From a virus (taxonomy: Duplodnaviria; Heunggongvirae; Uroviricota; Caudoviricetes): a stretch of DNA of 64,000 bases. Below are positions 2,510 to 36,751 of this stretch, piece by piece (the first letter of the stretch is position 1; each line of letters opens with the position of its first letter). Under the pieces are notes generated by a model, which worked only from the letters and a program-made list of their open reading frames with translations, was not told the origin of the DNA and made no database searches. The DNA lies in IMG/VR virus record IMGVR_UViG_2909314774_000001; one strand, 5' to 3'. A program made the position numbers and the translations under genes.

Positions 2510-3292
2510 GTGCCAATTGTCGGTGTTCCCGGTTGGATTGGGTCTTCGGCTGTCAGTGTGACAGGCCAGAGATGGATGAGTGCGGCTCGAACGGCGGTGC
2601 AACTGCCAGCGGCTGGTTCAATGTCTCAAATGGCCGGGCGATCTAAAGAAGTTCAGTACAGCATCGGTGCGAATCATAACTACAACAAAGACACACTGAT
2701 CAACTATTTAAAATCCCAGGGGGCGACGCCAGTCGTTGTTACCATTACAGGGGATCTGGTGTCGTCCAGTAGCGGCGTGCCATGTTTAGATTTCCCGAGT
2801 TCACTTACCAACTCTTATATCAGCCTTGTAATCAACGCAGGTGTGACTGTCTATGGACGCGGTGGCAATGGTGGTAGTAACGCTGCCGGTGCTGCTGGTG
2901 GTAACGCAATTAATAATGGCATCGGTACACGCTTGCGTATTACGAATAATGGTGCAATCGCTGGAGGTGGCGGCGGCGGTGGCGGCGGTAACAGGGGTAA
3001 ACTAATATTTGGTGGTGGCGGTGGTCGCCCATTCGGTGCTGGTGGGTCTTCCTCTCATATGAGTTCCGGTGCAACTGCTGGTACTATTTCCGCTCCTGGT
3101 AAAGGATCTGTTGGTGAGGGGTCTCTTAGTGCATATACAGGCGGTTCGGGTGGTAATGTCGGTGCTGCTGGAGGAAGATGTAATACTCAAGGTAACGGTA
3201 CAGAATATAACGGCGGAGCAGCTGGTAAAGCCGTAACTGGCAACGCGCCTACATGGACTAAAGCTGGGGCAATTTACGGCGCTCATGTGTAA
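2510..3292 (+). CDS. gp38-like tail fibre adhesin with glycine-rich motifs
   Basis: N-terminus VGVPGWIGSSAV..TGQRWMS and repeated poly-Gly tracts (GGGGGGGGGN, GGGGG) resemble T2/S16-type gp38 adhesins. Start moved to in-frame GTG 2510, which has AAGGAG 8 nt upstream; the ORF-track ATG at 2453 overlaps the previous gene. Confidence 0.55.
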   Translation: MPIVGVPGWIGSSAVSVTGQRWMSAARTAVQLPAAGSMSQMAGRSKEVQYSIGANHNYNKDTLINYLKSQGATPVVVTITGDLVSSSSGVPCLDFPSSLTNSYISLVINAGVTVYGRGGNGGSNAAGAAGGNAINNGIGTRLRITNNGAIAGGGGGGGGGNRGKLIFGGGGGRPFGAGGSSSHMSSGATAGTISAPGKGSVGEGSLSAYTGGSGGNVGAAGGRCNTQGNGTEYNGGAAGKAVTGNAPTWTKAGAIYGAHV

Positions 3293-3366
3293 GTACTTAC
3301 CTACCAAGTGTGGGCGTTTTATGATATAAAACCGCCATCCCGATTTGACGATTCATGGAGGAAATA

Positions 3367-3690
3367 ATGTCGAACGAGATGGCAGGCGTAACGCCAGAGC
3401 AGGTAGAGCGCATTGCCGCTATCGTTGCGCGTGAAGTTGTCGGCAAATTAGGTAAGGAGTTGCGTGAGGAAATTGGCCAGGAGGTCAACGACCAGCTCAA
3501 AACCTACTTTGGCGATATGACGCCTTCGCAACACAGCATTCAGCACTCCAACCTGGACAAACTACTTAATCGGCTAGACGCCATCTCCAGCGGGTTCTTT
3601 GGCGGCATTATCTCAAAGATAACGTCGTTCCTGATTACCGCGCTGCTGCTGGGTCTGGCCGCTTATGGCGTGAAGAATGGACTGCAATAA
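3367..3690 (+). CDS. Small protein with C-terminal transmembrane helix, putative holin
   Basis: GGAGGA RBS 4 nt upstream of ATG 3367; single hydrophobic helix ITSFLITALLLGLAAYGV at the C-terminus; sits directly upstream of a lysis-like cluster. Confidence 0.35.
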   Translation: MSNEMAGVTPEQVERIAAIVAREVVGKLGKELREEIGQEVNDQLKTYFGDMTPSQHSIQHSNLDKLLNRLDAISSGFFGGIISKITSFLITALLLGLAAYGVKNGLQ

Positions 3691-4396
3691 CAGGAGATCA
3701 AGGATGAAAACTCCGAGAGGCATTCGTAATAACAACCCTGGCAACCTCGACAAAGGTTCGCCGTGGCAGGGGCTAATCGACAACCCTGCCGAACCGCGCT
3801 TTTGCACGTTTAAAGACCCTGTTTGGGGGATTCGTGCGCTGGCGGTGACTCTAATTACCTACCACGATAAACGTCGCGCAAAAGACGGCACAAGTATCGA
3901 TACCATTCGTGAAGTTATTGAACGTTGGGCACCGCCGAATGAAAACAACACTGACGCCTACATTAATGAGGTGTCTAAAGCCGTTGGTGTAACCGCAGAC
4001 ATGATCATCGATCTGCATGATTACGACATTCTTCGACCTTTGGTTGAGGCAATCATTCGCCATGAGAATGGGCGAGGTCCGCTAAAAACGCTGAACACCT
4101 GGTATGCGGCAGAAGTTATTGAGGAAGGTCTGCGTCGAGCTGGCGTCGTTAAGCCGGTGAAAACCGTGAAGGCTGTTCCTGTAACTAAAGAAACTGCAGG
4201 CGCAACTGTTACAGCAGGTATTGGTCTGGCGCAGCTGGCCGATGTTATGCCGCAGGTTTCCGCTGCTATGGATAAAGCACAAGGTCATATCTCTAGCGGG
4301 GATACAGTACGCATCATCTTCGGTATTGCCACTATTGTTGTGGCAGGATTCATTGCCTGGTCGCAGGTAAGAAAACACCAGAAAGGGATGGTCTAA
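3677..4396 (+). CDS. Putative cell-wall hydrolase / endolysin-like protein with C-terminal membrane anchor
   Basis: Conserved-looking N-terminal motif GIRNNNPGNL...W.G and a C-terminal TM helix (IIFGIATIVVAGFIAW); lies between the holin-like and spanin-like genes. Function is inferred from context only. Confidence 0.3.
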   Translation: MDCNNRRSRMKTPRGIRNNNPGNLDKGSPWQGLIDNPAEPRFCTFKDPVWGIRALAVTLITYHDKRRAKDGTSIDTIREVIERWAPPNENNTDAYINEVSKAVGVTADMIIDLHDYDILRPLVEAIIRHENGRGPLKTLNTWYAAEVIEEGLRRAGVVKPVKTVKAVPVTKETAGATVTAGIGLAQLADVMPQVSAAMDKAQGHISSGDTVRIIFGIATIVVAGFIAWSQVRKHQKGMV

Positions 4397-33151: not shown

Positions 33152-34225
33152 ATGGCAAAAGGAAAATCCGCACTGGCACTTGCTCTGAAAAAGAAAATCG
33201 GTAGCAACGACGAAATTCAGAAAGTAACTCATTGGATTGATACAGGCTTTCCACCGTTAAACAAAGCTATTTCTGGTCGTTACGATGGCGGCTTCCCATG
33301 TGGTCGTATCGTCGAAGTATTCGGTCCTCCAAGTGCAGGGAAAACGTTCCTTGCAACAGCAGCGATGATCTCCGCTCAAAAACAAGATGGTCTGGCGGTA
33401 TTCCTCGATCATGAAAACAGTTTTGACGTTGGCCTGGCTGTAGCCAATGGCCTGAACGCAGATGAGGATGACGGTCAGTGGGTATACAAGCAGCCAGATA
33501 CCTTCGAAGACTCTGTAGAGTTGATCGGCACAATACTTAAATTGGTTCGTGATGAAGAGCTTATCCCCGAATCAGCACCTATCTGTATCGTGGCTGACTC
33601 TCTTGCGTCTATGGTTCCGAACTCCAAAGCCGAGAAGTTCGAAAAGATGGCTGAAGGCACTGCCAAAGACAAAGATCAGCTAAACATGAACGACAATACG
33701 GCACTGGCTCGTGCGACGAGTGCGAACTTCCCTACTCTGGCTTTGTGGGCACGCAAATACAACGCCTGCATCATCTTCTTGAATCAGGTTCGCACAAAAA
33801 TCGGTGTAATGTTTGGCGACCCTACTACGTCGCCAGGTGGAGATTCACCGAAGTTCTACGCTTCTGTACGTATCCGTCTTGGTGCATCGGTGATGAAGGA
33901 TGGTAAAGAGAAGATCGGCCAGGACGTAGGCGCAGAATGCATCAAAAACAAAGTTGCACCACCGTATGGCAAATGCACCTGGAAATTCTACTTCGATCCT
34001 ACTCGTGGCCTCGACGTTATCGAATCGCTCGTCGAGTACATGCTGGAAGAAGGATACCTGCCAAAGAACGCCAGCGGGCGAGTTGAAATTGGTGACAAGA
34101 AATACACCAAATCGCAGATCGTTGAGATGTATCGGGAGAAGCCACTGGCTGAAATCATTGCGGCTTTGCAGGCAATCGACGACCGAAGAGCAAAAGACAA
34201 CCCCACCGAGTCAGTAGAAGAGTAA
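33152..34225 (+). CDS. RecA-family recombinase
   Basis: Walker A GPPSAGKT and RecA-like core. Confidence 0.8.
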   Translation: MAKGKSALALALKKKIGSNDEIQKVTHWIDTGFPPLNKAISGRYDGGFPCGRIVEVFGPPSAGKTFLATAAMISAQKQDGLAVFLDHENSFDVGLAVANGLNADEDDGQWVYKQPDTFEDSVELIGTILKLVRDEELIPESAPICIVADSLASMVPNSKAEKFEKMAEGTAKDKDQLNMNDNTALARATSANFPTLALWARKYNACIIFLNQVRTKIGVMFGDPTTSPGGDSPKFYASVRIRLGASVMKDGKEKIGQDVGAECIKNKVAPPYGKCTWKFYFDPTRGLDVIESLVEYMLEEGYLPKNASGRVEIGDKKYTKSQIVEMYREKPLAEIIAALQAIDDRRAKDNPTESVEE

Positions 34226-34227
34226 AC

Positions 34228-34256
34228 ACAAGGCGTCCACAGGACGCCTTGTTTAT
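34228..34256 (+). terminator. Intrinsic terminator
   Basis: AAGGCGTCC-ACAG-GGACGCCTT followed by a T-rich tract. Confidence 0.6.
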
Positions 34257-34317
34257 CTCTTGAAAATATATAAGTACTTACTTATTATTTTCGCATAACA
34301 ACCACATAGGAAAACAC

Positions 34318-34518
34318 ATGATCAAAATCTATCTATTGGCAGTAGCCACAGGCCTTTCAGTGGCTCTCATCTACGGTTTACTGGTTCCGTCGCTGATTTC
34401 TACCAAGAGTGATTTAGCCGTCATGTTTGGAGTTATCGTTGGTTTTGGTGCTCCTGTAATCGGTCTTATTGCTGGTCGTAAGTTTATCAACTCATTAATC
34501 AAAGCAAAGGGGAAATAA
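34318..34518 (+). CDS. Small two-helix membrane protein
   Basis: 66-codon ORF, almost entirely hydrophobic; 3 nt upstream of the SPFH gene. Confidence 0.5.
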   Translation: MIKIYLLAVATGLSVALIYGLLVPSLISTKSDLAVMFGVIVGFGAPVIGLIAGRKFINSLIKAKGK

Positions 34519-34521
34519 GTA

Positions 34522-35352
34522 ATGAAGAAAGGTTTACTTGCAGTTGCTCTGGCGGCTATTTGCACAATGGGTCTTACTGGCTGCGATCGCGTGGAGCCTG
34601 GATACGTTGGCATCAAAGTAAACAAATTAGGTGAAGACAAAGGGATTGGTGAAGTGGTTGGCGTTGGTCGCCAATGGACAGGTCTTAACACCGAACTTTA
34701 CGTATTCCCGACCTTCAAACAAATGAAGACCTACGACGAGCCGTTCACATTCCAGATGAGTGACGGTACTGCTATTGGTCACAAAATTGGCGTTGCGTAT
34801 CTGGTTAATCGTGACAAGGTAACGACGGTGTTCCAGACCTATCGCAAAGGCGTAGACGATATCACCGAATCAGATCTGCGTCAGAAAATTGCCGACTCTC
34901 TAAACCGTTTGGCCAGCCGTATGACCACTGACTCATTTATCGACGGTGGTAAGGCACAATTGCTGGACAACGCACTGAAAGATATTCAGAAAGAGATGTC
35001 TCCGGTTGGTATTGAGGTACTGAGCCTGTCATGGGTTGGAAAGCCTGATTACCCAAAAACTGTCATTGAATCTATTAACGCCAAAGTAACGGCTAACCAG
35101 CGTACTCTGCAACGTCAGCAGGAAGTTGAACAACGTAAAGCTGAGGCGAATATGCTACGTGAACAGGCTAATGGTGAAGCTGATGCTATCCGTGCTCGTG
35201 CGCAAGCAGAAGCAGACGCCATTCGTCTACGCGGTGAAGCTCTGCGTCAAAACCCGAACGTTATGGAACTGGAAGCCATCAATAAATGGAATGGCCAGTT
35301 ACCGCAGTACATGACTCAAGGGGCTAACACTCCTTTCATTACAGTGAAATAA
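34522..35352 (+). CDS. SPFH/Band-7 domain lipoprotein
   Basis: Lipoprotein signal peptide with lipobox LTGC; SPFH-like core and Ala/Glu/Arg/Gln-rich C-terminal coiled coil. Confidence 0.6.
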   Translation: MKKGLLAVALAAICTMGLTGCDRVEPGYVGIKVNKLGEDKGIGEVVGVGRQWTGLNTELYVFPTFKQMKTYDEPFTFQMSDGTAIGHKIGVAYLVNRDKVTTVFQTYRKGVDDITESDLRQKIADSLNRLASRMTTDSFIDGGKAQLLDNALKDIQKEMSPVGIEVLSLSWVGKPDYPKTVIESINAKVTANQRTLQRQQEVEQRKAEANMLREQANGEADAIRARAQAEADAIRLRGEALRQNPNVMELEAINKWNGQLPQYMTQGANTPFITVK

Positions 35353-35368: not shown

Positions 35369-35394
35369 AGGCGTCCAGTTGGACGCCTTTTTTA
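35369..35394 (+). terminator. Intrinsic terminator
   Basis: AGGCGTCC-AGTT-GGACGCCT followed by TTTTTT. Confidence 0.7.
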
Positions 35395-35443
35395 TCGCAA
35401 TTATCTTATTAAGAAAACAATTTGTTTAAAAGGATAAGAAAAC

Positions 35444-35869
35444 ATGACAACTATTAAGAAACTCTACGATGCCGCAAACGTGGCTCTGGATGTTATTGAT
35501 GATGAAGTAGCAAAAGGCTTTCCTGAACCTGATTGGGCGCATCAGCTACGAAACGCTATCGCAGAAATGACCCCACCAGATCCAACCCCCGACGAGACAG
35601 ACTGGCAGCGATTCATCCGTATGTACGCTCAGGAAATAGGTCCAACGCCAACGGCAGAGCAGGCAATGCTGCTGAAATACTTCAAAGAGGCGGGAGAGGA
35701 TTTACCAATTGATGACTCAGCATATTGGTTCCACTGCGCATGGCGTAAGTATGACGTGATATTCACACAAGGCATGGGAAGCAAAGATATGGTTGTGTGG
35801 CATCTACTCCATATAGACACAGCCGTTGACAGAGTTATTGAACAGTTTTTCCCTAAACAAGAAGATTGA
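35444..35869 (+). CDS. Hypothetical protein
   Basis: 141-codon ORF preceded by the GAAAACAATTTGTTTAA palindrome. Confidence 0.5.
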   Translation: MTTIKKLYDAANVALDVIDDEVAKGFPEPDWAHQLRNAIAEMTPPDPTPDETDWQRFIRMYAQEIGPTPTAEQAMLLKYFKEAGEDLPIDDSAYWFHCAWRKYDVIFTQGMGSKDMVVWHLLHIDTAVDRVIEQFFPKQED

Positions 35870-36200: not shown

Positions 36201-36415
36201 GTTTACAGTAAAATTTATATAAGTTAGTATCTACCTATCATGAAGATTTTTATTGAATACTTGTTACTCATCGTTTCAATAGCTTTTGTCATCGACTGCA
36301 TTTTCACTGGTGTCATTCGTAAAGTCTTTTCCCCGGTGCACGACGTAGTCATAAACGCTTTGGCTATCGTGCTCGTATTTAATTCAGCATTTGATGTAAT
36401 CAAAGAGGTGGCAGC

Positions 36416-36751
36416 ATGAAGGCCATCCCATTCGCGCTGTTGTTCCTTTCTTCGATCGTTGTGGCCGACACCACTGTTTATCAGTGTGAAATGTCTGTAG
36501 CCGACGTTAAGAATGGCGCTCTTACCGACGTCATAAAAGCACCATATGGAGCGATGGTCGTAGACAGCGGCGACCAGTTCTATGTTGTGCGTGACGATCG
36601 AGTGTTGTCATCCCCATATCTCACAAATCGTAATGGCAAATTAACCGGCGTCGGAGAAGACCACTTCGTATACAACAAATACAAGGGCTTCTATGGCGTT
36701 CACGCTTCTCAGCAAAGCTACCTTTTCGATGACTGCAAGGAGGTTGGATAA
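36416..36751 (+). CDS. Hypothetical secreted protein
   Basis: N-terminal signal peptide MKAIPFALLFLSSIVVA. Confidence 0.45.
   Translation: MKAIPFALLFLSSIVVADTTVYQCEMSVADVKNGALTDVIKAPYGAMVVDSGDQFYVVRDDRVLSSPYLTNRNGKLTGVGEDHFVYNKYKGFYGVHASQQSYLFDDCKEVG

Follow-up and report, generated by a model that had tools for sequence, protein, structure and literature searches.

The 64,000-nucleotide stretch of IMG/VR virus record IMGVR_UViG_2909314774_000001 analysed here (hereafter the window) carries a compact two-gene cassette, in which a membrane protein of 66 amino acids (aa) is encoded immediately upstream of a 276-aa lipoprotein with an SPFH/Band-7 domain. We conclude that this cassette, made up of a hairpin, a promoter, the 66-aa gene, the SPFH gene and a second hairpin, is an autonomous, horizontally mobile phage moron. 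Its boundaries emerge from comparison with a relative that lacks both genes, the gene pair recurs in temperate and strictly lytic phages, and in some homologues the two proteins are naturally fused. It is probable, in our judgement, that the two products form an assembly akin to prohibitin or HflK which stands on the inner membrane at its periplasmic face and has the 66-aa protein as its hairpin subunit; what such an assembly would do for the phage is a far more tentative matter.

Boundaries, promoter and gene order of the cassette

Against non-mobilizable E. coli plasmids of ~107-112 kb the window has an identity of 99.8%; the value for Escherichia phage CMS-2020a is 99%, and that for Salmonella phage SSU5 is 79%. 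The genes around the cassette encode a 5'-3' exonuclease, a RecA-like recombinase, a DUF7238 protein and a Rep3-type initiator. To judge by these identities and this gene content, the window is an SSU5-like phage-plasmid, in agreement with a first-pass annotation that had been made from the sequence alone and had placed the pair on a phage-plasmid.

The same annotation described the two genes as bracketed by strong terminators, and a terminator scan found a hairpin on either side of them (Table 1). The left hairpin marks where the cassette begins and serves as terminator for the RecA-like gene before it; the right hairpin, which runs into a stretch of T, is the cassette's own terminator and right boundary. 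Their common core, GGCGTCC-N-GGACGCC, occurs exactly twice in the window, once at each cassette end (the right copy at 35370), and was not obtained once in 100 shuffles. Klebsiella phage ST13-OXA48phi12.3, an SSU5 relative without the two genes, has a single hairpin directly after its recombinase gene, and the 5' flank of this hairpin aligns with the left junction of the window and the 3' flank with the right junction. Because this empty site holds one hairpin whose flanks match both junctions, the unit of promoter, two genes and second hairpin copy is either present or missing as one block. With its own predicted promoter and terminator, and with presence or absence at a fixed site among relatives, the cassette has the features by which phage morons are recognised and reads as a cleanly bounded one. 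The boundary hairpin itself is confined to SSU5-like elements; since it is absent from the copies in P88 and in P1-like, N4-like and rV5-like phages, we reject it as a part of the mobile unit and regard it as a local insertion scar or terminator.

The predicted promoter is unusually well preserved among close relatives. A 34-bp block, CTTGAAAATATATAAGTACTTACTTAT[CT]ATT, is identical in six of the seven SSU5-family alleles compared, SSU5 itself and Yersinia pestis pMT1 among them, and differs at two bases in the seventh, while the adjacent leader and the synonymous sites have diverged. Conserved along with the block is the perfect palindrome TAAGTACTTA in the promoter spacer, which may be an operator. 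One further exact copy of this palindrome exists, at 3290, but it falls in the last part of a coding region, where there is no promoter, and is probably there by chance.

Both open reading frames (ORFs) lie on the same strand and share one reading frame. The stop codon of the first (TAA, 34516-34518) is followed by GTA and then by the ATG of the second, leaving a gap of 3 nucleotides (nt), and a GGGGA Shine-Dalgarno sequence at 34509-34513 lies inside the upstream ORF; the tight coupling of the lipoprotein to a tiny membrane protein that had been read from the window is thereby upheld. If this one stop codon were lost or read through, the junction (34516-34524) would yield a fused protein whose domains follow one another as in the natural fusions of metagenomic origin described below.

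An SPFH lipoprotein and its two-helix partner

The larger protein matches the Band_7/SPFH profile PF01145 with 106.2 bits (cut-off 23.6) over residues 23-209 and profile positions 2-176 of 176, and there is a further weak match to Flotillin over residues 208-266. Its N-terminus, MKKGLLAVALAAICTMGLTG-C, is a signal peptide ending in the lipobox LTG-C (which fits the pattern [LVI][ASTVI][GAS]C), with Cys21 as the residue to be modified. The SPFH core and the lipoprotein nature proposed for this protein are therefore both confirmed at the level of profile and motif, and PHROG family phrog_200, of which it is a clear member, carries the label 'lipoprotein'. In 20 enterobacterial homologues of 70-99% identity, Cys21 and Asp22 show little or no variation. 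Across 143 family representatives with a mutual identity of at most 50%, the lipobox Cys is conserved in 89%, and three C-terminal positions are conserved still more strictly (W256 in 100%, G258 in 98% and P261 in 94%).

The AlphaFold2 model of the monomer, with a predicted local distance difference test score (pLDDT) of 74.5, places strands within residues 28-95 and 164-176, followed by a 65-residue helix (179-243) and a shorter one (245-255), so that the coiled-coil tail anticipated from the sequence has its place in the model. As modelled, these long C-terminal helices are the counterpart of the coiled-coil wall in SPFH cages. The best Foldseek matches are HflK/C, prohibitin, erlin and stomatin (E=8e-13 to 1e-9), which align over the full length (250-300 columns), with flotillin and QmcA also matching at full length; every one of these proteins forms membrane cages. 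Identity to HflK/C in the structural alignments is ~17%. Among solved proteins the nearest relatives by family profile are prohibitin 1/2 (E=4e-11), HflK (4e-7) and HflC (1e-6), with QmcA at 2e-6. The only match of the single sequence in the PDB is HflK, and the only NCBIfam matches are weak ones to hflC (30.2 bits, cut-off 134.4) and hflK (18.7 bits, cut-off 159.4). We reject an identification of the protein as HflK or HflC, from which it is separated by scores far under the equivalog cut-offs, by a different anchor and by its occurrence as a single subunit. Matches to the model in BFVD include SPFH/Band-7 proteins of the same fold in giant viruses of eukaryotes (Tupanvirus, Pandoravirus, Marseillevirus and mimivirus relatives), so that SPFH genes occur in groups of viruses that differ widely.

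These relationships raise a question of function that goes beyond fold. HflK/HflC of E. coli and the mitochondrial prohibitins PHB1/PHB2 share with the phage protein the SPFH fold and the long coiled-coil helix, they cage FtsH-family proteases, and their SPFH domain lies on the non-cytoplasmic face of an energy-transducing membrane, which is also the orientation that we predict for the phage protein. The phage protein might accordingly be a mimic that encloses or titrates host FtsH from the periplasmic side and so shifts the stability of FtsH substrates such as LpxC, membrane proteins of the phage or phage regulators resembling lambda CII/CIII; earlier authors have suggested an FtsH-type role for other SPFH proteins of phages. 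However, both the sub-threshold scores and the low identity to HflK/C argue against such mimicry, as does the anchor: a lipid-modified Cys and a separate two-helix protein take the place of the transmembrane helix with which HflK/C begins. No link to FtsH is visible in the sequence, and a role in the lysogeny decision would make no sense in strictly lytic or in Gram-positive phages, among which the pair is common. The phage system also differs from these complexes in being encoded on a moron and in having a single SPFH gene in place of the heteromeric pairs formed by HflK/C and by prohibitin. We consider an FtsH-directed role unlikely.

The 66-aa partner has two hydrophobic segments, at residues ~5-23 and ~33-52, followed by a basic tail (GRKFINSLIKAKGK), and so is the two-helix membrane protein that it had been taken for. 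It is small, hydrophobic and rich in glycine zippers, with glycines abundant in the second helix; one basic residue precedes the first helix, the loop has a net charge of zero, and five basic residues lie in the C-terminal tail. Searches of Pfam (E<=0.1), NCBIfam, PADLOC (E<=1) and PDB sequences gave no match. The protein is nonetheless a clear member of phrog_1130, labelled 'membrane protein' and placed in the moron category; like phrog_200, this is a sequence cluster without an assigned function.

An NfeD-like identity of the partner, which had been put forward for a profile search, can be set aside: neither PF01957 nor any other Pfam family matches at E<=0.1, and a chain of 66 residues, almost filled by its helices and tail, is too short to hold an OB-fold. 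The arrangement is nevertheless reminiscent of the SPFH-NfeD operons (QmcA-YbbJ and YqiK-YqiJ of E. coli, PH1511-PH1510 of Pyrococcus), where a small membrane gene is likewise tightly coupled with the SPFH gene, as the 3-nt gap places one here, and QmcA is both a structural and a profile match of the phage protein. The two systems differ in that the phage partner is a bare hairpin rather than an NfeD protein with its OB-fold, and in that the phage SPFH protein has a signal peptide and lipobox whereas QmcA faces the cytoplasm.

An alignment of 17 free-standing and fused partners leaves only P24 and S28 invariant, with G38 conserved in at least 90%. The two invariant residues lie within the loop between the helices, in a motif P-x-[LM]-[IV]-S, and G38 lies just beyond it at the start of the second helix. 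Across alleles with saturated synonymous sites, the small gene has a ratio of non-synonymous to synonymous substitution rates (dN/dS) of 0.11-0.34, and the SPFH gene one of 0.02-0.07. By this measure both are under purifying selection, and the small ORF is thus a real gene. It evolves ~7 times faster than the SPFH gene at non-synonymous sites. At locus L048 the SPFH gene is almost identical to that of the window while synonymous divergence (dS) in the small gene is 0.63, and comparison of the window with L048 and L027 indicates that the partner gene is sometimes exchanged by recombination.

Such exchange would be at home in a toxin system, in which the hairpin would be a depolarising membrane toxin held by the SPFH cage and released on superinfection (abortive infection) or on plasmid loss (addiction). 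The small, hydrophobic, zipper-rich partner and its rapid evolution are compatible with this, and so are the low-copy phage-plasmid, on which stabilisation modules are common, and the candidate operator in the promoter. It sits poorly, however, with partner alleles that are interchangeable beside a nearly identical SPFH gene, where tight co-evolution of toxin and antidote would be expected, and stable natural fusions are hard to square with a releasable toxin. Given also that the pair is widespread in strictly lytic phages and has no PADLOC match, we find a toxin and its keeper very unlikely.

The association of the two genes is much broader than the SSU5 family. At all 90 of 90 non-redundant IMG/VR loci, drawn from three clades, a small membrane ORF abuts the SPFH gene; this count includes six loci that our script left unscored and that were inspected by eye (five with no upstream ORF called and one with no hydrophobic segment). 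The same crude script found a small hydrophobic ORF in that position beside 16% of random control ORFs. On individual inspection, such an ORF abuts or overlaps the SPFH start in most lineages, namely P88, SSU5, P1-like phages, phiP27, the N4-like KpCHEMY26, the rV5-like KE23, PAN70, the jumbo phage SonariX, Burkholderia vB_E175, roseophage DSS3_MAL1 and crAss cr85_1, with ATGA overlaps in P88, phiP27, PAN70 and KpCHEMY26. In three phages the partner had been left out of the deposited annotation although an intact two-helix ORF overlaps the SPFH start codon: phiP27 (62 aa, L091 3763-3951), Burkholderia vB_E175 (L170, ORF ending at 904) and PhiSH19 (69 aa, L178, between 1432 and 1638 on the minus strand). 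The 69-aa ORF is the true abutting partner in PhiSH19, with a predicted topology that differs from that in the window, and we give little weight to the 'superinfection exclusion protein' annotated beside the SPFH gene of that phage, which is a soluble acidic protein. Differently built small membrane proteins accompany the SPFH gene in distant lineages (DL54, phiCbK, Staphylococcus A3R with its mbpV-mbpS pair, Bacillus BillyBob and PhiSH19), and Kayvirus MbpS, preceded by the small membrane protein MbpV, is a distant homologue of the SPFH protein. Erwinia M7 and Rhizobium IC12 had no abutting small membrane partner on individual inspection, and in Faecalibacterium Toutatis two helices are built into the SPFH protein itself. 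In many contigs of the P1-like RCS47 type (L049) the partner ORF is 78 aa long and overlaps the SPFH start by 20 nt, while at locus L080 it ends 1 nt beyond that start, a difference that would fit a polymorphic frameshift within a run of A.

Of the 150 best family representatives, ~18 have the two proteins naturally fused. These begin with the two-helix domain and its loop motif, continue with a third hydrophobic or lipobox segment and end with the SPFH domain. Homologue searches with the small protein, both as a single sequence and as a profile, which reached close enterobacterial and Pseudomonas relatives, recovered no fusion to other domains; locus searches with single divergent queries returned two loci and none, respectively.

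Searched by tblastn, the SPFH protein has matches in 642 of 50,697 phage records (~1.3%), temperate and strictly lytic alike. The temperate carriers include SSU5-like phages, P1-like RCS47, P2-like P88, lambdoid phiP27, Stx2 phages and Pseudomonas PAN70; the strictly lytic ones include 183 Staphylococcus records (Kayviruses among them) as well as N4-like, rV5-like, jumbo, phiCbK, crAss-like and Lak phages, and roseophage DSS3_MAL1 carries the same pair. The cassette also matches 654 plasmid records, 63 of them from Yersinia. Plasmid pMT-1 of Y. pestis KIM10+ (pMT1 elsewhere in this text) holds a complete cassette (L092 2560-3594; Y_RS21715, Y_RS21720) with 79% nucleotide identity over its full length and the same promoter block as the window. 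A search of 1.84 billion cluster representatives with the SPFH protein returned 2,816 clusters at E<=1e-3, of which 195 had E<=1e-30.

So wide a range of carriers could also be accommodated by a general membrane scaffold, a microdomain that would aid the export or assembly of phage envelope proteins (for example by Sec-dependent secretion) or stabilise the inner membrane and proton-motive force while phage is produced in quantity. SPFH proteins generally organise membrane microdomains and encapsulate client proteins, and the pair occurs in many large lytic phages whose productive cycles are long. A secretion-helper role has been proposed for Tgl, the Kayvirus transglycosylase. Yet no conserved third gene accompanies the pair across lineages, and its moron structure and its presence or absence among close relatives fit an accessory better than a housekeeping function; we regard a general scaffold as improbable.

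Table 1. Features of the cassette and of its two products, with their positions in the window
Feature	Position	Strand	Basis or detail
Left hairpin, GGCGTCC..GGACGCC	34228..34252	+	terminator scan: 11 pairs, 7 G-C
Predicted sigma-70-like promoter, TTGAAA-17 nt-TATTAT	34260..34288	+	10/12 consensus positions matched
Perfect 10-bp palindrome TAAGTACTTA, candidate operator	34271..34280	.	inside promoter spacer, read from sequence
AGGA ribosome-binding site of 66-aa gene	34308-34311	+	sequence
Gene for 66-aa two-helix inner-membrane partner (PHROG 1130)	34318..34518	+	ORF; phrog_1130 E=2.1e-25
Inter-helix loop codons PSLISTKSD, predicted periplasmic	34387..34413	+	holds P24 and S28
Gene for 276-aa SPFH/Band-7 lipoprotein (PHROG 200)	34522..35352	+	PF01145 E=2.6e-30; phrog_200 E=3e-108
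Signal peptide, lipobox L-T-G-C, Asp at +2	34522..34587	+	Cys21 codon 34582-34584
Long C-terminal helices, residues 179-243 and 245-255	35056..35286	+	AlphaFold2 secondary structure
Signature W-x-G-x-x-P (W256, G258, P261) near C-terminus	35287..35304	+	family alignment
Right hairpin and T-run	35369..35395	+	hairpin 35369-35388, 8 pairs, 6 G-C, then TTTTTTAT

Predicted topology and candidate roles

An Asp at position +2 is the signal by which E. coli retains lipoproteins in the inner membrane. With Asp after its Cys, the SPFH protein may stay there, although the Arg at +3 could weaken the signal. For the partner, the distribution of charges points to both ends in the cytoplasm (N-in/C-in) and the conserved loop in the periplasm, and an N4-like homologue carries an independent N-in/C-in annotation. 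In the fused homologues the succession of segments would leave the SPFH domain no other place than the periplasmic side. The two-helix partner and the fusions thus speak independently for an inner-membrane location, and with the Cys and Asp of the sorting signal and the basic tail of the partner added, we favour a periplasmic SPFH domain held at the inner membrane. The loop would then be the only part of the partner able to reach the SPFH domain, and for this reason we propose it as the site of contact.

From these predictions we assemble the following explanation. The SPFH protein would be exported, lipid-modified at Cys21 and kept in the inner membrane, so that its SPFH domain and long helices would stand in the periplasm, in the orientation known from HflK/C and prohibitin. 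Like all SPFH proteins solved so far, it would oligomerise into a ring or cage fencing a patch of inner membrane. The 66-aa protein would be its dedicated membrane subunit, a helical hairpin with both ends cytoplasmic that probably touches the SPFH protein through its periplasmic loop and the P-x-[LM]-[IV]-S motif there. In the window the pair would be expressed from its own predicted promoter, and since in other phages it sits amid early or middle genes, the complex would be made early in infection. It would then shield the inner membrane of the infected or carrier cell from insults on the periplasmic side, the main candidate being DNA entry by a second phage (superinfection exclusion) and pore-forming toxins another.

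The gene context elsewhere bears on the last of these steps. In P88 the pair lies in the early operon between cox and the replication gene, in phiP27 between the repressor region and xis/int, in the N4-like phage between the genes for RNA polymerase II subunits and dUTPase, and in the rV5-like phage amid DNA-metabolism genes. The C1-repressed ban operon of phage P1 has a slot between upl and trnI/ban that is occupied by tciA/tciB/tciC (L176, record 70233-70929), whose products are TerB-like and annotated 'tellurite or colicin resistance or inhibition of cell division'. P1-like elements of the RCS47 type (L086/L049) have the SPFH pair in exactly that slot instead. The slot thus behaves, in the records compared, as an exchangeable cargo site of P1-like phage-plasmids that takes either tciA/B/C or the SPFH pair. 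The Tci proteins are unrelated to the pair and their functions are predicted by homology only, and we read the swap as a hint at envelope protection.

Superinfection exclusion and lysis timing were the two functions suggested in the first-pass annotation, and the context separates them. For lysis timing, the small protein would be holin- or antiholin-like, and the SPFH cage would restrain it, a true holin or a tethered endolysin, and thereby delay or sharpen lysis. In its general build the partner does resemble a class II holin (two helices in ~66 aa, N-in/C-in by the positive-inside rule, a charged and basic C-terminal tail and a glycine-rich second helix), the Kayvirus authors wrote that MbpV 'resembles holins', and an SPFH fence could in principle limit the lateral assembly of holin rafts. 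Membership of a holin family is nevertheless rejected, with no holin match in Pfam or PHROGs, where phrog_1130 is a membrane protein in the moron category. The candidate lysis genes of the window lie ~30 kb from the cassette: that at 3355-3690 encodes a 111-aa protein with a C-terminal hydrophobic segment (phrog_5093, a family without assigned function) and overlaps that at 3677-4396, which encodes the candidate endolysin, a 239-aa protein that likewise ends in a hydrophobic segment and has matches to phrog_873 'endolysin' and to transglycosylase-type domains; neither protein has a Pfam match. The cassette is insulated from other genes by terminators and has its own predicted promoter. Because of the distance of the lysis genes, and because the pair sits amid early or replication genes, not late lysis genes, in P1-, P2-, N4- and rV5-like and lambdoid phages, lysis timing appears less likely for the cassette of the window, and we rate a lysis clock as quite unlikely. 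Superinfection exclusion, by contrast, is plausible in view of the early-gene placement, the replacement of tciABC in P1-like phages and the predicted periplasm-facing orientation.

Known phage superinfection-exclusion proteins include Imm and Sp of T4, SieA of P22, gp15 of HK97 and the lipoprotein Ltp of Streptococcus phage TP-J34. They are accessory proteins, small inner-membrane and/or exported or lipid-anchored, and they act at the outer face of the cytoplasmic membrane. The early position of our pair in other phages parallels that of T4 imm and sp. None of these proteins has an SPFH domain, and they have no relation to the pair in sequence or fold.

Several observations weigh against the explanation that we favour. 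We know of no exclusion protein with the SPFH fold, and the nearest solved relatives, prohibitin and HflK/C, act together with FtsH-type proteases, which would imply a different role. As to retention in the inner membrane, an Arg at +3, present here, may weaken the Asp+2 signal, and outside the enterobacteria the +2 residue varies among Ser, Thr, Asp, Glu and Gly. The AlphaFold2 model is a monomer of moderate confidence whose last 18 residues fall below a pLDDT of 50, and the fused homologues are mostly metagenomic singletons. A PADLOC-DB v2 scan of both proteins returned no family at E<=1. In Staphylococcus Kayviruses, by exception, the mbpV-mbpS pair lies between the endolysin gene lysK, which it follows directly, and the transglycosylase gene tgl. 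Finally, we found no experiment on any member of the family in the full-text literature, where its role is called unclear or is speculated upon. Recent papers on phage-plasmids and on P2 hotspots make no mention of SPFH, and in searchable papers we found no description of the pairing, the loop motif or the fusions.

What the analysis shows directly is the gene pair and its conservation, the fusions, the ends of the moron and the homology; inner-membrane retention, topology, the cage and the contact through the loop are inferred. With these points included, we hold the explanation as a whole, that is, the moron, the periplasmic SPFH assembly and its shielding role, as a tentative proposal that falls clearly short of an even chance. 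The functional part, early protection of the inner membrane against attack from the periplasm and superinfection exclusion in particular, is a guess, possible yet rather unlikely when taken by itself. More doubtful again is the broadest version, a hitherto unrecognised and very widespread two-component phage organelle, in which a periplasm-facing SPFH nanocage and its hairpin subunit would be set early into the inner membrane by phages of many families and would block competing phages or other periplasm-side attack.

Neighbouring genes and wider meaning

The RecA-like recombinase gene upstream of the cassette (33152-34225) encodes 357 aa in the window. In many near-identical plasmids (e.g. NZ_CP124417) the same gene encodes 779 aa and is labelled 'LAGLIDADG family homing endonuclease'; the extra ~1.27 kb is probably an intein or homing-endonuclease insertion, which the window does not have. 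The gene after the cassette (35444-35869) encodes a DUF7238 protein (E=5e-38), and its counterpart is a set of small ORFs without annotated function in the Klebsiella relative and a DUF2591 (NinX-like) gene in SSU5 and pMT1, so that the region downstream of the right hairpin is variable too. Farther on, at 36240-36751, a 59-aa two-helix protein (phrog_2535) overlaps one of 111 aa whose N-terminus resembles a signal peptide (phrog_2077). At the corresponding position in the SSU5 and Klebsiella relatives there are ORFs of equal size (180 and 336 nt) with the same overlap, and both products are small membrane or exported proteins without an assigned function.

The cassette is a mobile two-gene phage module and a variant within the known SPFH proteins, not a categorically new one. 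Its interest lies in its breadth and in the minimal, self-contained and non-essential SPFH system that it offers, with one SPFH gene and one 66-aa partner in ~1.1 kb that includes its own promoter. Such a system would be unusually tractable for work on the anchoring of SPFH cages and on their contents. The carriers include phages used in therapy (Kayvirus, N4-like and PAK_P3-like), Y. pestis pMT1 and plasmids of the S. Typhi type. If the nanocage does block competing phages, it would represent a new mechanistic class of superinfection exclusion, and should the pair govern how susceptible its carriers are to colicins or other phages, this would have consequences for the design of phage cocktails and may be relevant to the ecology of phage-plasmids in clinical Enterobacteriaceae.

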